Source: Actinomycetes bacterium (lineage in GTDB: Bacteria > Actinomycetota > Actinomycetes > S36-B12). From it: a stretch of DNA of 64,000 nt. The notes beneath the pieces were generated by a model. That model had not been told where the DNA came from. It worked only from the letters and a program-made list of their open reading frames with translations, and did no database searches. The DNA is taken from NCBI GenBank assembly GCA_014190275.1, contig BJGE01000001.1, forward strand, positions 12,289 through 76,288, written 5' to 3'. Positions 6,705-61,833 of the stretch are shown in pieces; the first letter of the stretch is position 1, and each line of letters opens with the position of its first letter. The position numbers were made by a program, and so were the translations under genes.

Positions 6705-8630
6705 TCAACTTAAACTCAAGGATGGTTCGGCTGAGGCCGGGACCAATACCGGGATCGACTTTGACGGCTCCGCCGATGGCGAAACAGCTGGGGTCGATGA
6801 CGGCGACGGGGAATCGGTCGCTGACGGCGACGGTGAATCGGTCGGAACTACATCCGGTAAAACCGCCGGCACCGGTGCTACCGGAGCTGACCCAGTAACC
6901 GACCCAATCGAACATGGAGCCGTGGTGCCATCACTGCGGGTATAGGTGCAGGTGGTGGGAGTTGAAGTTCCGCTCTCACCGAAAGCCACCCCCGCATCGC
7001 TGGTGGTCAGCGTCAGCTTTCCAGAGGCAACCACCAGGCAGCCCGGCTGCGCGCAACCTGCATCTTGGCCGACCCAGGTGACAGAGCTACTCCACGGCGA
7101 GAGCACTACGGTCATCGGGTACGGCACACTCGAACCGTTGACGGTGATGGTGGTGGTTCCGGCGCTGCGGGCAATATCGACTCCAACGGTGCCGGCCGGC
7201 GGAGGGGTTGGGCCCGGCGGTGTCGGCGGGCTGGTCGGACACGTGTTGCCACTTAGCCCCGCTTGAAAACTGCTGACGAATAGGTAACCGGGGTCGGCAT
7301 CGGGTGCCTGCGGGCCCACCTTCCACCAGCCCAGGCTGCTGACATTGCCGGCCTTGGCGATGGACGCACCGAGGGCGCAGGCGTTGGCGGTGGTGAAGTT
7401 TTCACCCGAGCCCTGTACCCCGAGGGCCGGTGTTACCCCGGCGGGGAGGTTGGGGAACTGGGCCTGCGTTGCCTGCAGGGAGGCGAACACCGTCGCGCCC
7501 ATGTCGGGTTGATCGGACCCGAACCACATCGCCATCGCGTTGAGACTCAGGTTTTTAACACCGGCGTTAACGAAGTCATTGACGACACTGACCGCTGCTT
7601 GAGGTAAACCATCAGGCAAGGTCCCGAGGGTCAGGCTGATCTGCAGATCAGGATGTGCAACCTGCAGTCCCGCCACCGCCGCTGCGCGTCGCTGGGAGTT
7701 TGCCTGGTTGTACACGATGCCACCTGAAGCTTCGATATCGAAGTCCAGGCGATCAAGGTTTAGGCCGCTGACAATTTGCTCGAATGCCGCCTGCAACTTC
7801 ACCACATCAGGGCAGTTTGCGCTCAGATCAGCCGGGCCACCTTCGGGCGCCGACTGCCCACCGATGGATGGGATCACCCGACCACCCACCGCTTGGAAAG
7901 CCGTGATAGCCGCGGCAACTGTGCCACCGGTGACGGGTTGATTAGCTCCGCCCCACTGTGGCACGCACGGGGCTGATTGGGTGATGAACCCGGCAGAGAA
8001 GTTCTTCAGGCCCGTCGCGCTGCCCATGCCAACGAAGTCAGGTACCGGCCAGCCACCCGCATCCACATAAGGCGCCACCAGCACGTTACTTGCCCAAGCA
8101 TTAGATGGTAGTGAACTGGCTCCGTCGATGAAGAGCGAGGCGGTATTGAATTTCATCGGCGCAGCAGCTTTTCGAGTGCCAACGGCCCCTTCAAGGGTTT
8201 CCGAAATTGCTTCATCCGCCAAGATGGTGACCGGGTAGGTGACGACACTGCCCGTCATCTTCGGGGTACCGAGTGTCATGACAACCGAGTCTTCAGCACC
8301 CGCTGGATTCAATTCAACTAGCACAGCATTGGGGGCATCACCTTGAAAGATCTCGTTCCACGAGTTGACGACGCCAGAGGTGTTAACCACCTTGGCGGCC
8401 CGGATCGGGCGATCCGTGAATGCCAATGTGTGCATATCTATACCGGTTAGTGCCAACGTGTAGCTGCCATCGGCGTTCTCACTGAGGGAGCCGCCCTGGG
8501 CGCCTTGCGTGAAAAGCCAAGACTCCGCCGCGGCATCTGAGGCGGGCCTGGCAATTGCCCACACCCCGGCTGCGGCAATCAGCACCGCGGCAATGACGAT
8601 TCCAGTGATCCAGCCCTCACGTTTTGTCAT
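6705..8630 (-). CDS. membrane-anchored glycoside hydrolase family 18 (chitinase-like) protein
   Basis: N-terminal TM helix, then an unknown ~140-aa domain, then a GH18 core with catalytic DxxDxDxE (LDRLDFDIE). This is followed by a Pro-rich linker, a 4-Cys beta-rich C-domain and a Ser/Pro tail. Paralog of 58045-59895. Confidence 0.7.
   Translation of the reverse strand: MTKREGWITGIVIAAVLIAAAGVWAIARPASDAAAESWLFTQGAQGGSLSENADGSYTLALTGIDMHTLAFTDRPIRAAKVVNTSGVVNSWNEIFQGDAPNAVLVELNPAGAEDSVVMTLGTPKMTGSVVTYPVTILADEAISETLEGAVGTRKAAAPMKFNTASLFIDGASSLPSNAWASNVLVAPYVDAGGWPVPDFVGMGSATGLKNFSAGFITQSAPCVPQWGGANQPVTGGTVAAAITAFQAVGGRVIPSIGGQSAPEGGPADLSANCPDVVKLQAAFEQIVSGLNLDRLDFDIEASGGIVYNQANSQRRAAAVAGLQVAHPDLQISLTLGTLPDGLPQAAVSVVNDFVNAGVKNLSLNAMAMWFGSDQPDMGATVFASLQATQAQFPNLPAGVTPALGVQGSGENFTTANACALGASIAKAGNVSSLGWWKVGPQAPDADPGYLFVSSFQAGLSGNTCPTSPPTPPGPTPPPAGTVGVDIARSAGTTTITVNGSSVPYPMTVVLSPWSSSVTWVGQDAGCAQPGCLVVASGKLTLTTSDAGVAFGESGTSTPTTCTYTRSDGTTAPCSIGSVTGSAPVAPVPAVLPDVVPTDSPSPSATDSPSPSSTPAVSPSAEPSKSIPVLVPASAEPSLSLS
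6798..6845. repeat. 2 x 24-bp near-identical in-frame tandem repeat inside GH18 tail
   Basis: tgacggcgacggggaatcggtcgc / tgacggcgacggtgaatcggtcgg, encoding TDSPSPSA/TDSPSPSS on the minus strand. Confidence 0.85.
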
Positions 8631-13891: not shown

Positions 13892-14812
13892 GTGGCTACC
13901 CAGCATTCTTGGCAACAGGCCTGGGAGCACACTCTTGCCGGAGCCAATAGTTTCTATCGCGACCACCCGCCGGCAGATCACTTCACAACCTCGGTGATGT
14001 TCAATGCCGAGGTCGCATCGGCTGTAGCCGAGTTGATCCGTGGAATCGATGACGGCACCGAGTTGATTGTGACCGATGTGGGTGCCGGCGCCGGGCAGTT
14101 ATCAATCGCCCTTGCCGACCAACTGGGTGAGCGACCATGGATCAGCTTTGAGGCAATTGATCTTCGACCGGCACCCGAGCTGCTACCACAAAAGGTGCAG
14201 TGGTTGGTGGGTGACGCCCGCTCGCTGTCGCTGCACCCAGCACGTCGGGTGGTTATCGCTCATGAATTCCTTGACGATATCCCTTGCGAAATATTTGAAG
14301 TCGATGACCGGGGCGAAGCACACTTGATCATCGTCGCTGACGGTGAAGCGATAATGGGGCCGCGTTTAGCCGATGACATCGGGTGCGCCCGACTGGAGGT
14401 TAACGCGGCGCAATTACGCAACTGGCTGGATAAGTGGTGGCCGGCCCACCGGCCCTTTGTGCGTGGTGAAATCGGCAATACCCGCGATGCCACCTGGCGC
14501 CACTTGACCGGTTGGATAACAAGTGGCCTCGGAATCGCAATCGACTACGGGCACCTGAGCGCAGAGCGCGAAGCTGGCACCTGGGATGGTGGCACCTTAA
14601 CTGGCTTTCGCGGTGGCCGGGCCGTATCACCGATCCTTGACGGCTCCTGCAATATCACCGCTCATGTGGCCATGGATGCAATAGCAGCAGCGCGGATAAA
14701 TTGCGAGGTCACCCTTAAGCGGCAAACCGAGGTGCTGCACGGGGGCCACGTAGCAAAGCCCGGTGGCCTAGGCGAGATCCTCTGGCTGACCCAGAAGTTC
14801 TCGGACACCTGA
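13892..14812 (+). CDS. MidA/NDUFAF7-like (DUF185) class I SAM-dependent methyltransferase
   Basis: DHFTTS...VTDVGAGAGQL (SAM loop), HEFLDDIP, AIDYGH and NITAHV blocks match my recollection of the DUF185/MidA family. Confidence 0.72.
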   Translation: MATQHSWQQAWEHTLAGANSFYRDHPPADHFTTSVMFNAEVASAVAELIRGIDDGTELIVTDVGAGAGQLSIALADQLGERPWISFEAIDLRPAPELLPQKVQWLVGDARSLSLHPARRVVIAHEFLDDIPCEIFEVDDRGEAHLIIVADGEAIMGPRLADDIGCARLEVNAAQLRNWLDKWWPAHRPFVRGEIGNTRDATWRHLTGWITSGLGIAIDYGHLSAEREAGTWDGGTLTGFRGGRAVSPILDGSCNITAHVAMDAIAAARINCEVTLKRQTEVLHGGHVAKPGGLGEILWLTQKFSDT

Positions 14813-14824
14813 CAAGATGAGCGG

Positions 14825-15937
14825 GTGCAGGAGTTGCTGGTTGCCGTAGGAGCAGCGAGATACCTTGACCATGACTATGTGCTCGAGTTGGACGATCTGC
14901 ATCCCGCGTCACATGCTGCACTACAAATCCGGATAACTCTCGATGACCAAGGTCTGATCAGCACCGCCGATCCACAGGTCGGGTTACTGCACCGAAGCGC
15001 CGAAAAGCTTTTTGAAGCACGCGACTACCGACAGATCATGATGCTCGCCAACAGGCATGATTGGCTATCGGCCTTTTCCTCCGAACTGGGCGTAGCCCTC
15101 ACGGTTGAGGCCGCCATGGGTATCTATCCGCCACCGCGCGCGACCTGGACTCGAACATTGCTCGCTGAGATGAATCGTGTTTCGGCATCACTGCTGCTAT
15201 TGGGTGCCCCGACCCGCGATCTGCAACTGCTGCAATTACGCGAGCGATTCTTGACGCTGCAGGAGCTGGCAAGTGGGGGTCGCGTACACCCGATGATCAA
15301 CCGCATCGGAGGCCTAGCGCACCCACTCACCGAGCAATGGATCACCGAACTGATGACCGTGATCGACGAACTCAATTCGCAGCTACCGGCCATCACCGCC
15401 GCCACCGAAGAAGCAACTGCACCATTTGCTGGTTACGCGGTTTTATCGAAGGCCGATGCCATCGCCTACGGGGTCACCGGGCCGGTGGGGCGCGCAAGTG
15501 GTCTTGACCTAGACCTTCGACGGGACGATCCGTACTTGTCGTACGGCGAATTGGCTGATCTGCTAATCGTGCCAACTTCGGCCGCTGGCGATCTGCCGGC
15601 GCGTTACCGCATGTTGCTTGATCAGATACCCGTGTCGCTCAATTTGATGTCTGCGTGCACCGACCACGTGCTCGGTGTGGGTGAGATAAATGTGCCGCTG
15701 CCAAAGGTTGTCAAAGTCCCAGAGAGCACTTCGTATGGCCAAGTCGAAGGTCCACTCGGAGTAAGTGGCTACTTGCTGGTCAGTATCGGCGCAAAATCAC
15801 CTTGGCGACTAAAACTTCGCACCCCATCACTTAGCAATGTGCAGGCGATGGCCATAGCGGTCTCCGGGCTGCCGCTGGCAGATCTTGGACCAGCGTTGAT
15901 GTCGTTCTTCTTCGTGGTAGGTGATATCGACCGGTAA
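14825..15937 (+). CDS. stand-alone NuoD/Nqo4/NDUFS2-like protein (complex I 49-kDa subunit paralog)
   Basis: Gapless by-eye alignment to Nqo4/NDUFS2: LHPASHAAL~QHPxxHG, GLLHRSAEK~GLLHRGTEK, NRHDWLSAF~PRMDYLHSF, C-terminal VVGDIDR~VMGDVDR. No other nuo genes in the window. Confidence 0.85.
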   Translation: MQELLVAVGAARYLDHDYVLELDDLHPASHAALQIRITLDDQGLISTADPQVGLLHRSAEKLFEARDYRQIMMLANRHDWLSAFSSELGVALTVEAAMGIYPPPRATWTRTLLAEMNRVSASLLLLGAPTRDLQLLQLRERFLTLQELASGGRVHPMINRIGGLAHPLTEQWITELMTVIDELNSQLPAITAATEEATAPFAGYAVLSKADAIAYGVTGPVGRASGLDLDLRRDDPYLSYGELADLLIVPTSAAGDLPARYRMLLDQIPVSLNLMSACTDHVLGVGEINVPLPKVVKVPESTSYGQVEGPLGVSGYLLVSIGAKSPWRLKLRTPSLSNVQAMAIAVSGLPLADLGPALMSFFFVVGDIDR

Positions 15938-15969: not shown

Positions 15970-16254
15970 TTACTTCTCGTGCTCGCGTAGATAGGTCGCG
16001 AACCGCGCCCGAAGCAACGCTTCGGTGGTTGGGTCCAGTTGCTCATCGCCCAGCATCTCGCGAACTGCCTTCACCGTCTCAATGAAAGTTCCGCCGACCG
16101 CCCCGAGGTCACCGCCTTCACCCTCGATGGCAACCATCCCCGGCATATGGCCGAATAGATCGGTGAAGAACCCGAGGTCAAGGCGCTTCTCGGCGACATG
16201 AAAGGCGCGTTGGCGCAATTCATCAAAAGGCAGATCCTCAAGAACCTCACTCAT
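15970..16254 (-). CDS. hypothetical acidic 94-aa protein
   Basis: MSEVLEDLPFDELRQRAF... The ATG at 16254 overlaps the DUF3180 stop as ATGA (translational coupling). The longer 216-aa track ORF is rejected. Confidence 0.55.
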   Translation of the reverse strand: MSEVLEDLPFDELRQRAFHVAEKRLDLGFFTDLFGHMPGMVAIEGEGGDLGAVGGTFIETVKAVREMLGDEQLDPTTEALLRARFATYLREHEK

Positions 16255-34487: not shown

Positions 34488-35702
34488 TCACCAATTCCTC
34501 AAATCGATGACGTCAACGGTAGCGCCCGCCGCCACCGATGCTTGGCCGGCTGGGATAACAATAAAGCAATCGGCCTGCGAGAGCCCACCGACCGCATGGG
34601 AGCCTTGACCGCGCACCGGGGCGACCGTCGCCTTTTGCGCCCCGCCGAATTTGGCGCGCACGAACTGGCGCTTAGCCGGGGGTGAGGCCAGCTCCACCTC
34701 GCAGATGGCCTGCACATAAGGCCGGTAAATTTCCTGGTGCCCTTGCATTGTGCGAATCACCGGGCGCACAAAAGTCTCAAACGAGACGTAAGCGCTGACC
34801 GGATTGCCCGGCAGGGTAATGATGGGCGTGCCATTCGGCCCAATGCGCCCGTGGCCCTGGGGCATTCCCGGGTTCATGGCGACTTTCGTAAAAGTGACAG
34901 TGCCGAGTTTGCTTAGCACCGCCTTGACGGTGTCGTAGGCGCCCATGCTGACACCGCCGCTGGTGACGATTAGATCTGCAAAGTGCAATTGATCTTCAAG
35001 TGTTGACATGAAGACGCCTTCGTCGTCAATCACAGGTGGCACCCTAAATGCCACCGCACCCGCCTCCTGCGCCGCCGCGACCAGCAGAAAACTATTCGAA
35101 TCGGTAATCAGTCCCTTTCGCAATTGCGTACCCGGCTCGACCAGTTCACTGCCGGTTGAAATCACCACCACCCGCGGCTTTGGATGCACCAGCACCGAGC
35201 CTTTACCCACCGAGGCAAGTAGTGATAGCTGCCTCGAGGTCAGATAGGTGCCCGGGCGCATCACCACCTCACCCAGCAGTACATCCTCACCCGCCAACCG
35301 AATATTCGCACCGCTACTCACGGGCTCATTTATCTGCACGAGGTCGGTGCCACCGTCGGTCTTCTCCACCGGCACGACGGCGTCGGCGCCCTCGGGCATC
35401 GGCGCTCCGGTCATGATGCGGATCGCGACCCCCTGCACCACAACCTCGGTGGCTCGAAAGCCCGCCGGCACATCGTCAACCACCGTCAATTGCACCGGGT
35501 GCTCGCCGGTGGCGCCGGCTAGGTCAGCCGCGACCACCGCGTAACCATCCATCGAGGAGTTGTCGAAGGAAGGCAGTGGCCATGGAGCCGAGACCTCGGT
35601 GGCCAGGACGCAGCCATGGGCATCAAGAAGTGGCATTTCAATGGGCGCCAGCGCCTTGACCCCCGCCAATACCTGAGCCCGGTAATCCTCAACGCTGAGC
35701 AT
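34488..35702 (-). CDS. moeA: molybdopterin molybdenumtransferase
   Basis: MoeA N/linker/MoCF/C-terminal domain pattern (TSGGVSMG). Confidence 0.93.
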   Translation of the reverse strand: MLSVEDYRAQVLAGVKALAPIEMPLLDAHGCVLATEVSAPWPLPSFDNSSMDGYAVVAADLAGATGEHPVQLTVVDDVPAGFRATEVVVQGVAIRIMTGAPMPEGADAVVPVEKTDGGTDLVQINEPVSSGANIRLAGEDVLLGEVVMRPGTYLTSRQLSLLASVGKGSVLVHPKPRVVVISTGSELVEPGTQLRKGLITDSNSFLLVAAAQEAGAVAFRVPPVIDDEGVFMSTLEDQLHFADLIVTSGGVSMGAYDTVKAVLSKLGTVTFTKVAMNPGMPQGHGRIGPNGTPIITLPGNPVSAYVSFETFVRPVIRTMQGHQEIYRPYVQAICEVELASPPAKRQFVRAKFGGAQKATVAPVRGQGSHAVGGLSQADCFIVIPAGQASVAAGATVDVIDLRNW

Positions 35703-36924
35703 GGCTTAAGCCTATGGGTTTACCAGCGGACTCAAGTTTTGGTGAGCGGTCAACGGACGAAGCGCCGATCGCCCGCACCACATCTTCCAGCGCCTGCACC
35801 GAATGTCCACTGACAAAGGTGTCGACATAGGGCAAGGCCGCAGCCATTCCGCCGGCTAGCGGCTCAAAAGATGCCACCGCTTTTCGTGGGTTGACCCAGA
35901 TAATGTGGTGGGCGAGCCGCGAGAGTCGCTCCATTGCGATCCGCACCAGTGCCGGATCCTCAATCTCCCAGCCATCAGAAATTATTACCAAGACGGCCCC
36001 ACGCGCAACGCCGCGCCGCCCGTAATCATTAATGAAACGCATCAAGGTTTCACCTATTCGAGTGCCACCTGACCAGTCCGGCGCCGCCGCCGCCGCCTTT
36101 CGATAGGCAACATCTGGATTATTAATTGCCAGCGCCCGGGTTAGCCTGGTCAGCCGGGTGGCAAATACAAATGCCTCCGCACCAATCGCGAGCACTCCAC
36201 CCCTTGCCAGGTGCAGATATACCCGGGCGTATGGCTCCATGGAGCCGGAGATGTCTGCGATGAAGACGATGCGGCGAGGGCGGGGGACCCGAGCGCGCTT
36301 GACCAGCTTTACCGGGTCACCACCGGTTCGGTGGGACCCTCGCAATGTCTTGCGGATATCCAGGCGCCGACCGGCACTGTGCGATCTTTCGCGCCGCCCT
36401 TTGCGCATCGGCGGTACCAACGGCAACTGCTCGACCAACTGCCTAATTAGCAGTAACTCCTCCTCGGTAACCGCCGCAAAATCCTTATTCGAAAGCCGCT
36501 CATCGGTGCTCATTGCCGCGAGCATGCTCGCCTCGTCTGCGCCATCATCATCATCGCGGGCACCGGGGGTGGCGTTGGTTCCGCGCGGATTGTTATTTGA
36601 CTCCCCGGTGCGCTCGGGGTCTCCTGGCTTGCGCTCACCGGTCGGAGCGGCGGCCGGTGGAGCTTGATTTGCGCTTTCACCACGAAAGTCAGCCATATCA
36701 ATGATGCCACGAAATACCTGAGCAAAGCTCCGGTCATATATATCGATCTGCTCATGAGCCGTAATCAGGGTTACCCGACCCAACCAATACAGCTGTGTCA
36801 GGTCTTGCGGTGCTGCGAGGGTGATGGCGGCTGCGAATCTCGCACTCCGCTCAGGAGTAACCGGCACACCGGCGGCATGAAGTAAGTGGCCGAATGAGGC
36901 CGCAATCTGCGCGAGCTCAGCCAC
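35689..36924 (-). CDS. coxE: VWA domain protein, CoxE-type CODH maturation factor
   Basis: MIDAS DISGSM and VWA fold. GTG start overlaps the coxD stop by 8 nt. Confidence 0.85.
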   Translation of the reverse strand: MAELAQIAASFGHLLHAAGVPVTPERSARFAAAITLAAPQDLTQLYWLGRVTLITAHEQIDIYDRSFAQVFRGIIDMADFRGESANQAPPAAAPTGERKPGDPERTGESNNNPRGTNATPGARDDDDGADEASMLAAMSTDERLSNKDFAAVTEEELLLIRQLVEQLPLVPPMRKGRRERSHSAGRRLDIRKTLRGSHRTGGDPVKLVKRARVPRPRRIVFIADISGSMEPYARVYLHLARGGVLAIGAEAFVFATRLTRLTRALAINNPDVAYRKAAAAAPDWSGGTRIGETLMRFINDYGRRGVARGAVLVIISDGWEIEDPALVRIAMERLSRLAHHIIWVNPRKAVASFEPLAGGMAAALPYVDTFVSGHSVQALEDVVRAIGASSVDRSPKLESAGKPIGLSHAQR

Positions 36925-37801
36925 CCGCGACCCAGGCGTAGCCTTGATCTCGCACTAACTCCTGGTCTTCACGATATTTCAGCACCGACCCCAAGGTCTG
37001 CGACACCGCCTCAGCGCTCAACTGCTCGACCCCCAACAGCACTGCTGCGTGCACCCAGTCAATGGCCTCGGCGACTCCGGGTGGCTTTTGCACATCTAAG
37101 CCGCGCAATCGCTGCACCGCACCCGCAATCTGAGCCGCGAGCTCTGGCGAGGCTTCCGGCACCCGCAACCGCACAATTGCGACCGCGTGCTCAAGGCTCG
37201 GGTAGTCGATCCAGTGGTACAGGCAGCGTCGTTTCAGCGCGTCATGCAGATCCCGAGTTCTATTCGAGGTCAAAATCACGACCGGCGGGATGGTGGCCCG
37301 CAGGGTGCCGATCTCCGGAACAGTCACGGTCGACTCAGCCAGCATCTCGAATAGAAATGCCTCAAACTCCTCATCAGCACGATCGATTTCGTCGATCAGC
37401 AACACCGCAGGGTTTGGGCCCCGATGTTCGAGGGCTTGCAGGAGGGGGCGTTCCACCAAGTACTCGCGACTGAAAAGGGACTCTTCGGCTAAATCTGATC
37501 CTCGCGCCTCAGCAAGTCTAATCCCAAGCAATTGCCTCGGATAGTTCCACTCATAAAGTGCTTCAGAGGCATCAATCCCTTCGAAGCACTGCAGCCGGAT
37601 CAGCGGGGTGTCGAGCATTGTTGCGAGTGCTTTTGCAGCTTGGGTTTTACCTACCCCCGCTTCGCCTTCGAGCAATAGCGGCTGCGGCAGGCGCACCGCG
37701 CAAAACAAAGACGTGGCTAGGCCGATCTCGGTCAGATAATCCTGCTCGGCCAGCCCTGCCATCAAATCCTGCGGTGATCCGATTTTGTCAGCGATGCTCA
37801 C
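36917..37801 (-). CDS. coxD: MoxR-type AAA+ ATPase, CoxD-type CODH maturation factor
   Basis: Walker A GEAGVGKT, Walker B LLIDEIDR. GTGA overlap with the upstream gene. Confidence 0.9.
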   Translation of the reverse strand: MSIADKIGSPQDLMAGLAEQDYLTEIGLATSLFCAVRLPQPLLLEGEAGVGKTQAAKALATMLDTPLIRLQCFEGIDASEALYEWNYPRQLLGIRLAEARGSDLAEESLFSREYLVERPLLQALEHRGPNPAVLLIDEIDRADEEFEAFLFEMLAESTVTVPEIGTLRATIPPVVILTSNRTRDLHDALKRRCLYHWIDYPSLEHAVAIVRLRVPEASPELAAQIAGAVQRLRGLDVQKPPGVAEAIDWVHAAVLLGVEQLSAEAVSQTLGSVLKYREDQELVRDQGYAWVAGG

Positions 37802-38703
37802 ATCACTCCCGCGAACTTAGCCGGATCAGTTAGGAATTTCTCCTTGCAGCCAAGGCAGCAGAAGTACCAGCGGGCACCGTCATGATCTGCGTGAATGCTC
37901 GTTGCTACGGCAGCAACACTCATGTGGCAAATCGGGTCAACGGCCTCCTCGGCACCGGACACCGTCACCATCGCCACCACGCCCTCCTGTTGCGACGCGC
38001 GCCGTTGCTCAATTATCTGGGCAAAGATCGACACCGCGATCTCTTCGGGGGATTGCGCACCGATATTCAAGCCGGCGGGGGCATGAACACGAGCCCGCAT
38101 ACAGGTGGTGACATCAAGGGAATCAAGTACCGCGGACCCTCGCTTCGGGCTGGCGACCAGGCCTATGTATGGGACATTTGCCTTTAGCGCGGCAATTATC
38201 GCGGCCTCCTCGTCGTCGCCATGCGAGGCAAGAATTACCGCATCAACATTGGTCAGCGGGCCACTCACCCACGGCGCCACCTCGTAACCCAAGGTCGAGC
38301 CGATAACGGTTAAGGCCTGAGCAATCGGGCTGTTACCAAGTACTCGAATAAGTGGCGCTGGAAAAACCGGCTCCATAAAGATCTCCAATGTGCCACCGGA
38401 AAGGCATGGGTTGTGGACGACCAACTTGCCATGCTGGTCAGCTTCAGGGGTTGGAGCAATTCGTAGCAGCACGCAGTTGCCAGTGCTCAAAGCCGCGAGT
38501 CCTTGGGCGCGCACCGTTGCCTCAGCGCATTGCCCACCGACAAAACCCAACATTGTTCCGTCACCGAGGATCAGGGCTTCATCACCAGGCTTTGCCGAAG
38601 TCGGCTTCTCTGCAAACACAACACGGGCATGCACGAAAGGGATCCGATTAGCAGAAAGCTGCTCGGCCCTTTCGCGCACCGCCCGTCTTGTCATGCTCCG
38701 CAT
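37798..38703 (-). CDS. XdhC/CoxI/CoxF-family maturation protein fused to a C-terminal YHS metal-binding domain
   Basis: XdhC N-domain (FVHARVV...GFVGGQCAE), a Rossmann-like domain, then DPICHMSV...WYFCCLGCKEKFLTDPAKF (YHS/TRASH pattern). ATG at 38703 chosen, 8 nt after the coxL stop. Confidence 0.85.
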   Translation of the reverse strand: MRSMTRRAVRERAEQLSANRIPFVHARVVFAEKPTSAKPGDEALILGDGTMLGFVGGQCAEATVRAQGLAALSTGNCVLLRIAPTPEADQHGKLVVHNPCLSGGTLEIFMEPVFPAPLIRVLGNSPIAQALTVIGSTLGYEVAPWVSGPLTNVDAVILASHGDDEEAAIIAALKANVPYIGLVASPKRGSAVLDSLDVTTCMRARVHAPAGLNIGAQSPEEIAVSIFAQIIEQRRASQQEGVVAMVTVSGAEEAVDPICHMSVAAVATSIHADHDGARWYFCCLGCKEKFLTDPAKFAGVM

Positions 38704-38710
38704 TCTTTCG

Positions 38711-41158
38711 CTACTCGATTGCCATATCCACACGGATGGCATTGCCTTGAATTGCCCGCCACACATTGGCAGGGGTCAATGGCATGTCCGCATGCCGCAC
38801 CCCGAACGGGCTGAGCGCATCGATCACCGCGTTTACTACGGCGGCAGGTGATCCAACGGTCGCTGATTCACCAACACCCTTGGCGCCGATCGGGTGATGG
38901 GGTGACGGGGTCACCGTCTCGCCCAGTTCCCAATCCGGGCACTCGACGGCCGTCGGCAGCAGGTAATCCATGAACGAACCACCAAGGTTATTGCCATCGG
39001 TATCGAAAGCAATCAGCTCCATCAAGGCCATCCCGACACCGTCGGCCAAACCACCGTGCACCTGGCCTTCGACGATCATCGGGTTAATCCGGGTGCCACA
39101 GTCATCAACCGCGATGAATCTTCGGACTTTGACCTGGCCGGTACCCGGATCAACATCGACTACGCAGATGTAACACCCATACGGGTAGGTCAGACTCGGC
39201 GGGTTGTAAACCGCCGTCGCGTCAAGGTGACCTTCCACGCCTTCTGGCAGTTCGAGGGAACTGTGTGAGAGCAGAGCGATTTCGGCAATGGTCTTGCCAC
39301 GTTCTCTATCACCCTTCACATACCAGCGACCCAACTCCCAGTCCAGATCATCTGGCGCACACTCCAACGCTGCGGCCGCAACGATGCGAGCGCGATCGCG
39401 TACCTTGCGCGCCACCACCGATGCTGCGGCACCCGACACTGGAGTCGACCGAGAACCGTAGGTACCGAGGCCAAAAGGGGTGTTATCGGTATCTCCATGA
39501 AGAACTTCAATATCCTCCGGGGGAATACCGAGCTCATGGGCCACAATTTGAGCAAAAGTGGTCTCGTGGCCTTGCCCTTGGCTTTGCACAGACAAACGCA
39601 GTTGCGCTTTACCAGTTGGGTGTACGCGCAATTCGATGCCATCGGCCATGCCCAGCCCGAGGATGTCCATGTCCCTGCGGGGCCCGGCGCCCACCCCTTC
39701 GGTGAAGAAGGAGATCCCGATACCCATGTATTCGCCGCGAGTGCGCTTTTCGGCTTGCTCACGACGAAGTTCGTCGTAACCGGCCATCTCCATCGCCACC
39801 CGCATCGTCTTCTCGTACTGCCCGGAGTCGTACTCCCAGCCCGTTGGCGAGGTGTAGGGGAACTGCTCGGGGCGCAGCAGATTCTTCAATCGAAGTTCGG
39901 CCGGGTCCATCTGCAATTCTTGCGCTAGGCAGTCCACCACCCGCTCGATTACATATGCCGCCTCGGTAATGCGGAAGGAGCAGGCATAGGCAACACCGCC
40001 CGGGGCCTTATTGGTGTACACCGGGGTCACTTTGCAGTGGGCATCCGGGTAGTCGTAGGAACCAGAGAAAATATTGAAGAACCCTGCCGGGTAATTGGTC
40101 GGCTGGGCCACTCCATTGAAGGCCCCGTGATCGGCCAGCACATCAACATCGACCGCCAAAATCTTGCCCTCTTTGGTGGCCGCGATGGAGGCGGTCATGT
40201 GGTAATCACGCGCAAAGCCCGTGGAGGTCAGGTTCTCGTTGCGGTCTTCTATCCACTTAACCGGCTTACCGGTAACGATCGTACCGATGACCGACAGTAC
40301 GTACCCTGGGTAAACGGGCACCTTGTTGCCGAACCCACCACCGATATCCGGGCTGATAATCCGGATCTTCTGCTCCGGCAGCCCAGCCACCATCGCATAC
40401 ACCGTTCGGTGGGCATGTGGTGCCTGCGTGGTCGTGTACATGGTCAATTGACCTGTCACCTTGTCAAGATACGACACCGAACCGCAAGTCTCCATGGGTG
40501 CTGGATGCACGCGCGGGTACATGATCTCCTGCGTGACGACTACGCAATTCGGGTCTGCCTTCGCGGCTGCAATAGCCGCCGCTGTTGACTCTGCATTACC
40601 TGACTCCCAGGTCTTGTTCCCATGGACGTCGGTAATGCTGTTATCAGTTTGCCCTTTGTCATCTCGGATAATCGGCGCGCCCGCATCCAACGCCATCTTG
40701 GCATCCATGACCGGTTCCAAGACTTCATAATCTACGTCGATCAGCTCTAATGCATCCTTAGCGATATAGCGGCTTTCGGCGATGACATAAGCCACTTCCT
40801 GTCCTTGGAAACGCACTTTGTCAGTGGCAAGCACCGCCTGGGTGTCATAAGACAGCGTAGGCATCCACGCGAAGTTATCTCCGAGTAAAGATGGGCGCGG
40901 AATACCTTCCAGGATCTTTCCGGTAATGACAGCCACCACCCCTGGCAGTGCTTCTGCAGCAGAGGCATCGATCGACACGATGCGCGCGTGCGCATGTGGA
41001 CTGCGCAGGATGGCGCTATGCAGCATGCCCGGCAGGTTTACGTCGTCAACGTAGTTGCCTTGGCCACGTACGAACCGGGCGTCCTCAACTCTTCGCATCG
41101 AACCAAACCCAATTGGGTTCCCGGCCGCACTCAGCGGCACCTCTTCTACGGCGGTCAT
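38711..41158 (-). CDS. coxL: aerobic carbon-monoxide dehydrogenase large (molybdopterin) subunit, form I
   Basis: 815 aa. The active-site loop VAYACSFR matches the form I AYXCSFR signature. The ATGA overlaps the coxS stop. Confidence 0.92.
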   Translation of the reverse strand: MTAVEEVPLSAAGNPIGFGSMRRVEDARFVRGQGNYVDDVNLPGMLHSAILRSPHAHARIVSIDASAAEALPGVVAVITGKILEGIPRPSLLGDNFAWMPTLSYDTQAVLATDKVRFQGQEVAYVIAESRYIAKDALELIDVDYEVLEPVMDAKMALDAGAPIIRDDKGQTDNSITDVHGNKTWESGNAESTAAAIAAAKADPNCVVVTQEIMYPRVHPAPMETCGSVSYLDKVTGQLTMYTTTQAPHAHRTVYAMVAGLPEQKIRIISPDIGGGFGNKVPVYPGYVLSVIGTIVTGKPVKWIEDRNENLTSTGFARDYHMTASIAATKEGKILAVDVDVLADHGAFNGVAQPTNYPAGFFNIFSGSYDYPDAHCKVTPVYTNKAPGGVAYACSFRITEAAYVIERVVDCLAQELQMDPAELRLKNLLRPEQFPYTSPTGWEYDSGQYEKTMRVAMEMAGYDELRREQAEKRTRGEYMGIGISFFTEGVGAGPRRDMDILGLGMADGIELRVHPTGKAQLRLSVQSQGQGHETTFAQIVAHELGIPPEDIEVLHGDTDNTPFGLGTYGSRSTPVSGAAASVVARKVRDRARIVAAAALECAPDDLDWELGRWYVKGDRERGKTIAEIALLSHSSLELPEGVEGHLDATAVYNPPSLTYPYGCYICVVDVDPGTGQVKVRRFIAVDDCGTRINPMIVEGQVHGGLADGVGMALMELIAFDTDGNNLGGSFMDYLLPTAVECPDWELGETVTPSPHHPIGAKGVGESATVGSPAAVVNAVIDALSPFGVRHADMPLTPANVWRAIQGNAIRVDMAIE

Positions 41159-58044: not shown

Positions 58045-59895
58045 ATGTCCCCGATTAAAGGTCGGACCGCAATATCCGTTGCAATCGCGGCAACCACAAT
58101 TTCCACGCTGGCGATCATCCCTGCAGTATCAGTGGCAGCTGCCACAAATACGGTTGTAACAAATGGAGTTAGCGCGATCACCACGGTAAATACTGATTGG
58201 AGTTCGGGATATTGCGCTGATGTGGCAATTACAACCCGCGCAACCACGGAACAAACGTGGAGTACCACCCTGCCAACCGGTATCACTGTTAATAGCCTTT
58301 GGAATGCTAAGAAATCCACCGGCGCCGACGGCAGTGTCCTGATCAATGGGGCGGCCTGGAACCCGACGGTAAAAGCGGACGCACCAACATCATTCGGCTA
58401 TTGCGCCACTCGGGCCGCGGCGGTCACACCCGCACCGTTTCCGACTGCTTCGCCTTCGGTTGCACCAACGACTACACCAACGTTGGCTCCGACAAGTGCA
58501 CCGACGGTTGCACCCACCGGTGCACCGATTACCGGCACCCCTGGCAAGACCGTGATCGCTCCGTATGTCGATATGGGTTTGTGGCCAACGGCCAACCTGG
58601 TGAATATGTCCGCGGCCACCGGCGTTAAAGCAGTCACCGCCGCGTTCGTGGTGCAAGAGGCTGGTAAAGCCTGCTCACCCTCCTGGGGTGGCTACGCCGC
58701 GTACGCGGTGGGCGGCACCAATGACTTCGTCGACATCATCGGCGACTTCCAACGGCAAGGTGGGCGCGTGATCCCATCATTTGGGGGTGCCTCCGGATCC
58801 GAATTGGCCAATGGCTGCACTAATGAAGCTAGCCTGCTCGCCGCCTATAAGAAGGTTGTCGACCGATTCGGCTCTGACCGTATCGACTTTGATATAGAGG
58901 GCGCTGATATTGCCAATTCGGTATCGAACCAACTCCGCGCCAAGGTAGTTTCGCAATTACAGAGGGACTACGCGGCCCAAGGCAAGACCATTGAGGTTTC
59001 CCTGACCGTTCCAGTCATGCCGTACGGCCTCGATAACAATGGCCTGCGCACCGTAAAGGAGTTTGCCGCCGCAGGAGTGAACCTTGCCTCGGTAAACGTA
59101 ATGGCGATGGACTACGGCACCGAATGGACCGACATGGGCACGCATGCCATTACCGCGGCCCAGAACACCGCCACCCAGTTGAAGACAATCCCGAAATATT
59201 CGAGCCTTTCGAATAGTGCGTTGCTTTCACTTGTTGGCATCACGCCAATGATCGGACAAAATGACGTCGCCAGCGAGATTTTCACCATCGCTGATACGGC
59301 TAAGGTCGCTAGATTCGTCAAGGACAATGGCGTCGGCACACTAGCCTGGTGGGAGTTGACACGCGATACTCCGTGCACCTCAACGAGTCAGGGTCTGTAC
59401 CTGTGCACGAAAACCAATGAACCGCAGTGGGCATTCGCCAGGGCGTTCATCGCGGGCATGGGTGGGACGGTCCCGCCAAATCCGGTGCCGACCGCTGCAC
59501 CCACTGCAACTCCGACGGCTACCCCCACTGCAACTCCGACGGCTACCCCGACGCCATCCGCACCCGCGGGTACTTCGGCACTGTCCATTGCCCTTGCGGT
59601 TGGATCCGACTGGGGTACCGGGCGCACCTTGGACCTGGTGGTCACCAACACCGGTAACCGGTCGCTGTCCACTTGGTCGGTGACCATGCCGTGGGCTGGG
59701 ACCGCAATAAAGATGTGGAATGCCACGGGCACTCTCGCCGGTGGCAAGTTGACGGCAGCGGCCGCCGACTGGAATGGCCAACTGGCACCGGGTGCATCGG
59801 TGACTGTTGGGTTCAATGACACAGGTGCTTTGACGCTGCCAACCACCTGCACTTCCTCGGTGGGAGCCTGTGTTGTCAGGCCGGGCACTTTGTAG
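58045..59895 (+). CDS. secreted GH18 (chitinase-like) hydrolase flanked by N- and C-terminal CBM2-like modules
   Basis: Signal peptide, CBM2-like module (DWSSGYCADVAIT...LWNA...AAWNP...FGYCA), Pro/Thr linker, GH18 core with DRIDFDIE, PTAT linker, then a second CBM2 (DWGTGRTLDLVVTNTG...MWNA...DWNGQLAPGASVTVGF...C...C). Confidence 0.78.
   Translation: MSPIKGRTAISVAIAATTISTLAIIPAVSVAAATNTVVTNGVSAITTVNTDWSSGYCADVAITTRATTEQTWSTTLPTGITVNSLWNAKKSTGADGSVLINGAAWNPTVKADAPTSFGYCATRAAAVTPAPFPTASPSVAPTTTPTLAPTSAPTVAPTGAPITGTPGKTVIAPYVDMGLWPTANLVNMSAATGVKAVTAAFVVQEAGKACSPSWGGYAAYAVGGTNDFVDIIGDFQRQGGRVIPSFGGASGSELANGCTNEASLLAAYKKVVDRFGSDRIDFDIEGADIANSVSNQLRAKVVSQLQRDYAAQGKTIEVSLTVPVMPYGLDNNGLRTVKEFAAAGVNLASVNVMAMDYGTEWTDMGTHAITAAQNTATQLKTIPKYSSLSNSALLSLVGITPMIGQNDVASEIFTIADTAKVARFVKDNGVGTLAWWELTRDTPCTSTSQGLYLCTKTNEPQWAFARAFIAGMGGTVPPNPVPTAAPTATPTATPTATPTATPTPSAPAGTSALSIALAVGSDWGTGRTLDLVVTNTGNRSLSTWSVTMPWAGTAIKMWNATGTLAGGKLTAAAADWNGQLAPGASVTVGFNDTGALTLPTTCTSSVGACVVRPGTL
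59500..59547. repeat. 2 x 24-bp perfect in-frame tandem repeat in PTAT linker
   Basis: cccactgcaactccgacggctacc occurs twice and encodes (PTAT)n. Confidence 0.9.
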
Positions 59896-60435: not shown

Positions 60436-61833
60436 CTAGCGGCGCTCGCCGATCACGACCACTTGGTCGCCGGCGCTGAAGGTGATCTGCTCACGTTTGG
60501 GCGGGTTGAGGTGAAGACCGCCTGCCAAGGAGCCAGGGGTGTCGGTCGCCGAAGCACACTGGTAGCCAATCGCGACTACTCCCCAATTGCGGGCCTCTGC
60601 GATGACCTCGCCAAAGGTCGTGCTGCCGAACGCGACGTAACGCTCGAATGGGTGCTTGGTCACGCTGGACCCATCGGCATCAAAAAGATCCGCGAACACA
60701 TCAACGAGTTGGGGGCTTTCGCTCAACTGCGCGAGTAGCAAACTGATCAATCGCTGGCTGACGATGAAGTCATCGCCATCGCCCTCATTGGCCAATTCGA
60801 CGTCACTTCGGTCACGCAGCTCGGCAACGATATTGCCCTCGTGCACAGAGCTCGCAGCGCGCAGGTGCATGAGGCTGAGAAGCACTCGAGCATCTGCTTC
60901 GTCGACGCCAAATGGTGGATTTTCACAAAGGATTAGGTCGTGGTCAAAAACTCCTGAATCAGCCACCGACAAAATGGTTGATCTGCTAATGGTGTCACCC
61001 TCAACCAACTGCAAAGACTGATTGGTCAGACCGAGTCCTTCAATTTGAGCGCTGACCGCACCTGGGTCGTACAGATCACCATCAATCAGAACCACTAACT
61101 CCGAATTCGAGGCCACATGAGTTTCTATTTCGTCAATGATAATCGGCGCCATTAGGTTCCAGCCCACTATCAATGAGCGCTCACGCTTGGCGTCTAGTGA
61201 CTCCCACACCCTGATATCACCAAGCTCCCAAGGGTCAGGTACTAGGTCCATAACAAATACCGAATCATCCGCCGCGATGCCTATTGCACAATCCCCCGCA
61301 CCAACAATCGTTCCGATTGGCGCATTCATCGGGGATAGGTCACCAAGGCGCGTGGGCATACCACTTCGCACGACCAATCGCGAATCACCCATGTCACTGA
61401 TATCACGATTCAACGCATCTGATAGGTCCACCACATCATCTGGACTCAGCACCACGATGACGTGACCACGATTACTCCGATTGGCTTCCACGAGTTCGGA
61501 GATGACCACCGGCAACTTCTCACTGCGGCCAATGATCAAGGTGTGGCCGCGTTCAATTACCGCCGACTGGCCCTGCCTAAGTTCTTCGAGTCGGCGCTCG
61601 ATGGCGCTGGAAATCAAACCGATGATCGCAGCGCCGATAAAAATGCCGACCAGGGTGATCCGCACACTAAAGATCCGGTTATTCGAACCCTGGTCACCGG
61701 TGAACGTACCGGCATCGAGGTAGCGGCCCATGGCGAGCCACACCCCTTCGGGAAAACTGGCCGGCTCATCACCAGGGCCTCGACGCGGGAGCCAGGTAAC
61801 CGTAGAAACCAGCAGCACTCGCACGGCGGTCAC
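60436..61833 (-). CDS. CASTOR/POLLUX-related putative ion channel with tandem RCK-like domains (short N-terminus)
   Basis: Pore-like segment GVWLAMGRYLDAGTFTG, a TM helix ITLVGIFIGAAIIGLISSAI, then two Rossmann-like repeats (HTLIIGRSEKLPVVISEL; SLIVGWNLMAPIIIDEI). Confidence 0.68.
   Translation of the reverse strand: MTAVRVLLVSTVTWLPRRGPGDEPASFPEGVWLAMGRYLDAGTFTGDQGSNNRIFSVRITLVGIFIGAAIIGLISSAIERRLEELRQGQSAVIERGHTLIIGRSEKLPVVISELVEANRSNRGHVIVVLSPDDVVDLSDALNRDISDMGDSRLVVRSGMPTRLGDLSPMNAPIGTIVGAGDCAIGIAADDSVFVMDLVPDPWELGDIRVWESLDAKRERSLIVGWNLMAPIIIDEIETHVASNSELVVLIDGDLYDPGAVSAQIEGLGLTNQSLQLVEGDTISRSTILSVADSGVFDHDLILCENPPFGVDEADARVLLSLMHLRAASSVHEGNIVAELRDRSDVELANEGDGDDFIVSQRLISLLLAQLSESPQLVDVFADLFDADGSSVTKHPFERYVAFGSTTFGEVIAEARNWGVVAIGYQCASATDTPGSLAGGLHLNPPKREQITFSAGDQVVVIGERR

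Follow-up and report, generated by a model that had tools for sequence, protein, structure and literature searches.

The window analysed here, a stretch of 64,000 nucleotides from the Actinomycetes bacterium assembly GCA_014190275.1 (contig BJGE01000001.1, positions 12,289 to 76,288 of the forward strand), carries two closely spaced genes: one for a methyltransferase of the MidA/NDUFAF7 family, and one for a paralog, here called NuoD2, of the 49-kDa subunit of respiratory complex I (NuoD in bacteria, Nqo4 in Thermus thermophilus, NDUFS2 in mitochondria). The human enzyme NDUFAF7 dimethylates one particular Arg of NDUFS2 and is needed for assembly, and NuoD2 keeps that Arg. Both genes lie on the plus strand, with the neighbours on either side on the minus strand, and both open reading frames (ORFs), with the 12-nt gap between them, were found where a preliminary description of this DNA had put them:

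13892..14812, plus strand: MidA/NDUFAF7-family methyltransferase gene; 306 aa; a short, divergent COG1565/Methyltransf_28 member
14813..14824, plus strand: spacer from the MidA gene to the NuoD2 gene; 12 nt, CAAGATGAGCGG
14825..15937, plus strand: NuoD2 gene, paralog of the 49-kDa subunit (NuoD/Nqo4/NDUFS2), of the R-H-D-W type described below; 370 aa

The NuoD2 of the window matches the Complex1_49kDa family (PF00346) with E=4e-42, and its alignment with NuoD models and with the NuoD chains of the PDB spans the whole protein, the chains reaching E ~1e-39; the family match and the chain alignment agree with the end-to-end likeness to NuoD/Nqo4/NDUFS2 first claimed for this protein. Because its scores stay below the NCBIfam equivalog cut-offs for NuoD (223 bits against 360 for NF004739 and 209 against 459 for TIGR01962), its sequence marks it as a divergent NuoD paralog. 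The AlphaFold2 model (predicted local distance difference test, pLDDT, 92.7) has the complete 49-kDa fold, with template modelling (TM) scores of 0.82-0.89 to complex I's 49-kDa subunits. The HMMER alignment to T. thermophilus (Tt) Nqo4 placed H30, R57 and W80 exactly as an earlier alignment by eye had done, and the positions that carry the argument are these:

14912..14914, plus strand: His30 (codon CAT), equal to Tt Nqo4 His38, the quinone head-group ligand (HMMER alignment)
14990..15007, plus strand: HRSAEK motif, which holds Arg57
14993-14995, plus strand: Arg57 (codon CGA), counterpart of the Arg in the mitochondrial HRGTEK (Thr64 in Thermus; HMMER alignment)
15053..15064, plus strand: R-H-D-W motif (Arg77-Trp80), in place of the canonical R-[LM]-D-Y (alignment)
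15062-15064, plus strand: Trp80 (codon TGG), at the position of Tt Tyr87, the quinone-binding Tyr (HMMER alignment)
15218..15220, plus strand: Asp132, equal to Tt Asp139 (the partner of His38), adjoining a 7-residue deletion (HMMER alignment)
15287..15289, plus strand: His155, equal to Tt His169 (HMMER alignment)
15908..15910, plus strand: Phe362, at the position of Tt Asp401 (family alignment)

Within the R-H-D-W motif, His78 stands at Tt Met85. We take His155 to be the equivalent of Yarrowia His226, the His associated with the iron-sulfur cluster N2. The counterparts of Arg57, namely Arg85 of bovine NDUFS2, which is dimethylated, and Yarrowia Arg121, stand beside cluster N2 (PMC8042128), and Tt Asp401 belongs to the quinone chamber and is a site of piericidin resistance (PMC4758237).

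These positions were counted in 125 non-identical NuoD2 sequences from genome and metagenome loci. The acceptor Arg (the Arg57 position) is present in 125/125, as is each of Arg77, His78, Asp79 and Trp80 (Tt 84-87), and the His155 (Tt His169) position is likewise His in all 125; the position of Trp80 is occupied by Tyr in 36/36 canonical NuoD sequences. Since the Trp and the Arg are invariant throughout the family, they are not chance features of one protein. The quinone-ligand His (Tt His38) is kept in 93 of the 125 members and the Tt Asp139 position is acidic in 76 of them (the window protein has both, as His30 and Asp132), and the Tt Asp401 position is Phe in 95/120 members and Gly in 14/120, as against Asp in 36/36 canonical sequences. 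Going by these counts, the NuoD2 residues predicted to face NuoB and cluster N2, Arg57, Arg77 and His155 among them, are the most strictly constrained, and those predicted to protonate quinone are not. Homolog searches returned thousands of NuoD2 relatives, about 100 clusters of which (at 50%) share the signature HR[GS]xEKLFExRDYRQxxxLA[ND]RHDW; the corresponding motif of canonical NuoD is DR[LM]DY. The taxon names obtained through cluster members were confined to Actinomycetales/Dermatophilaceae. The non-canonical quinone site (Trp for Tyr) proposed for the window protein is thus a property of the pocket across the whole NuoD2 family.

The methyltransferase matches the Pfam profile Methyltransf_28 (PF02636, formerly DUF185) over residues 96-270 with 60 bits, above the gathering cut-off of 23.3, and its model has a MidA-type fold, both of which bear out the DUF185/MidA identity that it had been given. 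Its S-adenosylmethionine (SAM)-binding loop is readily recognised:

14075..14101, plus strand: SAM-binding loop DVGAGAGQL, residues 62-70 (translation; aligns with the GAGxG loop of 4F3N/1ZKD)

Across 40 family members D62, G64 and L70 of this loop are invariant, and the four stretches DVGAGAGQL, AHEFLDDIP, DYGH and ITAHV are invariant or almost so; the family motifs align with the GAGxG loop, [AG][HN]E..D..P, DYG[HF] and TAHV of 4F3N/1ZKD. A single-sequence phmmer search of the window MidA against the PDB gave zero matches, and the profile of the 40-sequence family matched 4F3N (E=1.8e-10) and 1ZKD (E=2.3e-9), which are bacterial COG1565/DUF185 structures. With the AlphaFold2 model (pLDDT 92) as query, the top six Foldseek matches fell to the COG1565 structures 4G67/4F3N, Dictyostelium MidA (5ZTZ/5ZU0) and 1ZKD (TM 0.67-0.74; E 1e-13 to 1e-16); generic methyltransferases came next, at E 1e-6, a gap of seven orders below the MidA-type matches. 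From the profile-to-PDB matches and the fold matches together, the enzyme is a short, divergent and genuine member of the MidA family.

The neighbourhood of the two genes was followed through 44 actinobacterial genome loci (Nanopelagicales, Ornithinimicrobium and other metagenome-assembled genomes, MAGs) and 80 metagenome loci, the latter picked for their distance (37-51% identity to a remote NuoD2 family member); ORF clustering of the high-GC metagenome loci was too noisy, and these loci were inspected directly and with Pfam. With rare exceptions, NuoD2 lies in the same panC-DUF2520 ... DUF3180-folK island in genome and metagenome loci alike, and MidA is present in every locus that reaches DUF2520 (35/35 and 21/21, or 56/56 together), so that the conservation of the pair across Actinomycetota, which the preliminary description had left to be checked, is upheld at the level of the island. 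MidA directly adjoins NuoD2 in the window's relatives and in Ornithinimicrobium, and look-ups begun from MidA homologs led to the same MidA-NuoD2 pair. The genomes nearest to the window, at 86-87% identity, are freshwater Nanopelagicales/acI-type actinobacterial MAGs, and streamlined acI genomes also carry the pair. Besides NuoD2 there is no nuo gene in the window by tblastn with actinobacterial NuoA/B/C/D/F/G/H/I/J/K/L/M/N, by phmmer with the ORFs of 36 canonical nuo loci, or by Pfam scans of the large window ORFs, three approaches that agree with the earlier claim; nor were other nuo genes found near NuoD2 in ~123 related loci. A NuoD of the R-H-D-W type inside a nuo operon was looked for among the 44 genome and 80 metagenome loci, and none was found.

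Some observations on individual loci stand apart from these counts. In a 761-kb Nocardioidaceae contig (L104, 47-16824), NuoD2 lies outside the panC-folK island, among teichoic-acid-type glycosyl/glycerophosphotransferase genes, and has no MidA within 10 kb. Three contigs titled "Bifidobacterium breve" (L006, L029, L034) and six titled "Rubrivirga sp." (L020, L022, L025-L027, L031) have Nanopelagicales-type synteny instead, and their record labels are probably wrong.

One complete chromosome was surveyed, that of Nonomuraea gerenzanensis (NZ_LT559118.1, 11.85 Mb; loci L164-L166), an entry that is filed in PLSDB as "plasmid I" and has 10 annotated features only. It contains exactly two NuoD loci at E<=1e-30. 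The first is inside a canonical nuoA-N operon, so a complete operon with its own nuoD does exist elsewhere in a genome that carries the pair; the second is a NuoD2 of the R-H-D-W type, in a nadB-panC-DUF2520-MidA ... DUF3180-folK island, and the single MidA-family gene of the chromosome lies 4.4 kb upstream of it. A further cluster, nuo2, lies some 70 kb away from the canonical operon and has the order nuoA2, M48 peptidase, nuoB2, nuoC2, nuoH2, UbiE-like methyltransferase, Ser/Thr kinase (on the other strand), nuoI2, J2, K2, L2, M2 and N2: this cluster has no nuoD, E, F or G. A similar situation has been published for Streptomyces, in which nuoD2 lies apart from a nuo2 cluster of unclear function that is without nuoC, D, E, F and G. 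For the D subunit that Nuo2 lacks, NuoD2 is the evident candidate, and in Nonomuraea it is the only nuoD that this scattered set could use. The preliminary description called the window protein an orphan; this finds no support in the functional sense, given the D-less nuo2 cluster and the two NuoD loci of Nonomuraea and the like description of Streptomyces, and NuoD2 is most likely a detached subunit of a second complex-I-like enzyme.

The M48 (HtpX-like) peptidase and the UbiE/COQ5-type methyltransferase of the Nonomuraea nuo2 cluster lie at L166 27701-29395 and 32118-32882 (~1,209,700-1,214,900). Since htpX also stands behind the nuo operon and NDUFAF7 of Candidatus (Ca.) Actinomarina, an M48/HtpX peptidase may be a recurrent accessory factor of such nuo clusters.

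Which NuoB would receive NuoD2 is suggested by a pair of residues beside cluster N2. The canonical NuoD of Nonomuraea and of Mycobacterium smegmatis (PDB 8E9G) has GYLHTGIEK, where Thr occupies the acceptor position (likewise in Thermus), and the canonical NuoB of the same two species has IVAGRVSQKMAP (AGR), its Arg being that of Thermus Nqo6 Arg83. The acceptor motif of NuoD2 is HRG/S (HRG in Nonomuraea), and the Nonomuraea NuoB2, which keeps all four N2 cysteines, has IVSGTVTDKMAP (SGT), with Thr as in the mitochondrial PSST IVAGTLTNKMAP (AGT). NuoB2 also matches the mitochondrial PSST with a higher score than it does the mycobacterial NuoB. The side chains of NDUFS2-R121 and Thermus Nqo6-R83 share the same space beside N2 (Hameedi et al., PMC8042128). 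By sequence, then, the canonical pair has Thr on D and Arg on B, and the Nuo2 pair has Arg on D2 and Thr on B2, which is the mitochondrial arrangement, the setting where the action of NDUFAF7/MidA is established; in the one genome where this can be compared (Nonomuraea), the Arg/Thr pattern matches NuoD2 to NuoB2 and not to NuoB1. Because canonical actinobacterial NuoD has Thr, NuoD2 would be the only NuoD-type Arg target in such genomes.

We consider it somewhat probable, from the sequences and by analogy with mitochondria, that the pair consists of a MidA-type methyltransferase and a 49-kDa-type subunit of a Nuo2 enzyme encoded elsewhere, and that MidA methylates Arg57 so that NuoD2 can dock onto NuoB2. 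NuoD2 would be the D subunit of a second complex-I-like enzyme that is without the NADH-oxidising module, and the remaining genes of this enzyme (nuoA2, B2, C2, H2-N2) would lie elsewhere in the genome. Freshly synthesised NuoD2 would have its HRSAEK loop methylated at Arg57 by the SAM-dependent MidA; the modified protein would then dock onto NuoB2, where the Arg would fill the iron-sulfur cluster N2's second coordination sphere, a role parallel to that of dimethyl-Arg in mitochondrial and Paracoccus complex I. The quinone head-group pocket would be altered, with Trp in place of Tyr, His in place of Met and Phe in place of Asp401, and many lineages can do without the His/Asp pair; because of this remodelling, Nuo2 probably deals with its acceptor in another way than canonical complex I does. 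That Arg57 is methylated we infer from the known systems, and the assembly of NuoD2 with the Nuo2 subunits and the possession of a nuo2 cluster by the window organism, a Nanopelagicales-like freshwater actinobacterium whose genome is probably small, are presumed as well. A bolder thought, to which the invariant R-H-D-W cluster, the Phe at the Asp401 site and the dispensable His/Asp pair give rise and which we rate as a small chance, is that Nuo2 with its NuoD2 may fall outside the known types of quinone reductase and would instead use another acceptor, cofactor or reaction, the pair perhaps working independently of a membrane arm in streamlined plankton that may be without nuo2 altogether. The enzyme-substrate idea itself is strengthened by the linkage of the two genes in 56/56 loci, by the position of Nonomuraea's sole MidA at the NuoD2 locus and by the restriction of the Arg to NuoD2: a writer and its target remain the best reading of the pair, and one that is now better grounded.

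Several points weigh against this reading as a whole. The D-less nuo2 cluster was seen in one genome, Nonomuraea, and is otherwise that of Streptomyces in the literature; the Streptomyces nuoD2 is likened to the NuoD2 family by its published description, and, since the published nuo2 is also without nuoC, which subunits make up Nuo2 is not settled. For canonical actinobacterial complex I, the HTG/AGR pattern comes from two species. In several soil lineages, 0.7-4.5 kb of unrelated genes, some of them on the opposite strand, stand between MidA and NuoD2 (L100 7117-9063, L097 5036-9814, L123 7331-8644, L164 7640-11142), so the two genes are linked and not always in one operon or co-transcribed. 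The insertions hold bPH_2 membrane proteins, an ABC transporter, a cytochrome P450 and a class-V-like aminotransferase; the bPH_2, P450 and aminotransferase genes were considered as possible parts of the system and ruled out, being lineage-specific and often on the opposite strand. Finally, synteny extends over the entire panC-folK island in Actinomycetota, which makes the neighbourhood taken alone moderate evidence that MidA and NuoD2 are coupled, weaker than if the pair had been conserved amid reshuffled genes.

This last point can be carried further: a frozen panC-folK island could keep the genes together by inheritance only, and MidA could methylate another protein or DNA. The flanking housekeeping genes are indeed as syntenic as the pair, unrelated genes have entered between MidA and NuoD2, and the function of prokaryotic MidA has been inferred in silico only, with a DNA-methylating activity reported for the MidA of Wolbachia. 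It is difficult, however, to reconcile this with the fact that the sole experimentally known substrate of the MidA family is this very Arg of a NuoD homolog, an Arg that is absent from canonical actinobacterial NuoD and invariant in NuoD2. The pair also forms a co-directional unit of its own, opposite to both neighbours and with its members 12 nt apart in the window; the only MidA gene of Nonomuraea sits at the NuoD2 locus; and an independent association of MidA with nuo genes exists in Ca. Actinomarina. Mere co-inheritance therefore strikes us as quite improbable. We are equally doubtful of the view first put forward for this locus, in which MidA is the writer for a true orphan, a free-standing NuoD-fold protein with a non-respiratory role (a redox sensor, a binder of a ligand or metal, or an assembly or regulatory factor). 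It would agree with the absence of NuoD2 from the side of other nuo genes in ~123 loci, with the retention of the pair in small planktonic genomes, with the loss of the quinone His/Asp pair in a quarter to 40% of NuoD2 members, and with the new invariant His-Asp-Trp cluster of NuoD2, whose position we take to be that of the metal-binding site of the hydrogenase ancestors. But the residues that are invariant in NuoD2 correspond to positions that in complex I look towards NuoB and cluster N2, the fold is retained in full together with the surfaces of the complex I interface, a cluster missing exactly D exists where this could be checked (Nonomuraea), and the Arg-Thr covariation between NuoB2 and NuoD2 is hard to explain for a solitary protein.

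NuoD2 could, on the other hand, act in respiration without any Nuo2, as an exchangeable isoform that swaps for NuoD in the ordinary 14-subunit complex I and gives it a Trp-lined site that is insensitive to inhibitors or takes another quinone, with MidA as a maturation factor. A Trp at Tyr87 is reminiscent of engineered mutants in which decylubiquinone activity is low and resistance to inhibitors strong (PMC4758237); in Streptomyces that produce piericidin, the change of Tyr87 to Trp, together with changes at Met85 and Asp401, has been reported and was taken for self-resistance (PMC4758237), and NuoD2 bears exactly those three changes. Hybrid nuo/nuo2 machinery has been suggested in the literature for Streptomyces, and an isoform would explain the retention of the pair in streamlined genomes even if these are without nuo2. 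Still, the Arg of canonical NuoB already fills the space of NuoD2-Arg57, so that two Args would compete, and it is NuoB2 that has the matching Thr; a D-less nuo2 cluster with B2 and C2 does exist in Nonomuraea; and a role in resistance is at odds with the universal presence of the NuoD2 family in non-producers and planktonic lineages. For these reasons we think an isoform of canonical complex I unlikely.

The reading that we prefer, a MidA writer and a NuoD2 that serves Nuo2, draws on systems of which much is already known. The same Arg was found in 2013 to be symmetrically dimethylated in the Nqo4 of Paracoccus denitrificans, and E. coli is without the modification (PMC8042128), so Arg methylation in bacteria is not the novelty for which it was first taken. 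The mitochondrial NDUFAF7-NDUFS2 and Paracoccus systems share with the window pair the methyltransferase family and fold, the family of the target subunit and the same HRGxE Arg beside N2, and the mitochondrial one also has Arg on the 49-kDa subunit and Thr on PSST/NuoB, as in NuoD2/NuoB2. Compared with the mitochondrial system, the window enzyme, at 306 aa, is shorter and strongly divergent and has no single-sequence match in the PDB, and its presumed target is a paralog that has Trp for the quinone Tyr and stands apart from all nuo genes; writer and target genes are linked here and unlinked in mitochondria, and methylation of the target is here a presumed one. In Streptomyces, nuoD2 and nuo2 (SCO4599-4608) show the same detached second nuoD and the same D/E/F/G-less cluster as Nonomuraea. 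NUO11, NDH-1 and the complex of Ca. Actinomarina resemble Nuo2 in being without NuoE/F/G and consisting of a Q module and membrane arm only. The Ca. Actinomarina operon, described in a preprint, has 11 nuo subunits followed by NDUFAF7 and htpX, that is, by a PF02636 gene and HtpX, and the Nonomuraea nuo2 also holds an M48 (HtpX-like) peptidase. In these 11-subunit systems, however, nuoD lies within the operon, whereas here D2 has moved with MidA to a housekeeping island.

The Trp substitution of NuoD2 is also that of the Tyr144Trp/Tyr87Trp mutants and of the Streptomyces NuoD described by Degli Esposti (2015; PMC4758237), in which Tyr87Trp and the Met85 and Asp401 changes were called unique or very rare and interpreted as antibiotic self-resistance. 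In our data, by contrast, the three changes are the signature of a paralog family found across Actinomycetota, freshwater plankton included. Because the changes at residues 78, 80 and 362 coincide with this signature, the published "piericidin-producer NuoD" sequences were probably nuoD2 paralogs. The MidA-NuoD2 linkage, the R-H-D-W signature and the B2/D2 covariation were not found described in the searchable literature, itself incomplete, which was covered for SCO3392, for NuoD with NDUFAF7 and for COG1565/PF02636. The enzyme family, the modification (including its occurrence in one bacterium), nuoD2 and nuo2 are already known, and the finding is not categorically new.

The surroundings of the pair in the window are housekeeping genes, in the order lysS, coaX, nadC, nadB, panC, DUF2520, the MidA-NuoD2 pair, a small ORF and DUF3180, followed by folK, folB, folP, folE, ftsH, hpt and tilS. 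The small ORF (94 aa, 15970-16254, minus strand) belongs to no Pfam family, is convergent to the 3' end of NuoD2 and lies upstream of DUF3180/folK; its position is kept in 47 related loci, and in independent contigs it is called as a gene of 95-97 aa, again without a Pfam match. Elsewhere in the window, positions 34488-41158 (minus strand) encode MoeA, a CoxE-type VWA protein and a molybdopterin-binding large subunit of the xanthine dehydrogenase/CO dehydrogenase family, and positions 58045-59895 (plus strand) encode a protein of 616 aa with a GH18 chitinase domain and a C-terminal CBM2. Two proteins, of 641 aa (6705-8630, minus strand) and 465 aa (60436-61833, minus strand), have no Pfam match at E<=1e-5.

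The role of the dimethyl-Arg beside cluster N2 is unsettled (PMC8042128), because in mitochondria the modification is hard to separate from assembly. A MidA enzyme that is found across Actinomycetota with a dedicated NuoD paralog would offer a better system in which to study its function: in tractable hosts of the Streptomyces type, whose canonical complex I is without the acceptor Arg, writer and target could be deleted and canonical respiration spared. For the unexplained nuo2 clusters of actinomycetes, the pair provides a concrete hypothesis, namely a missing D subunit, a NuoB2 partner for it and a maturation factor, and the "Tyr87-to-Trp NuoD" that has been tied to piericidin self-resistance is suggested to be a signature of the whole paralog family. 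Should the pair work without a membrane arm, methylation of the Arg would serve as a dedicated switch, for maturation or regulation, of a new kind of module derived from complex I.

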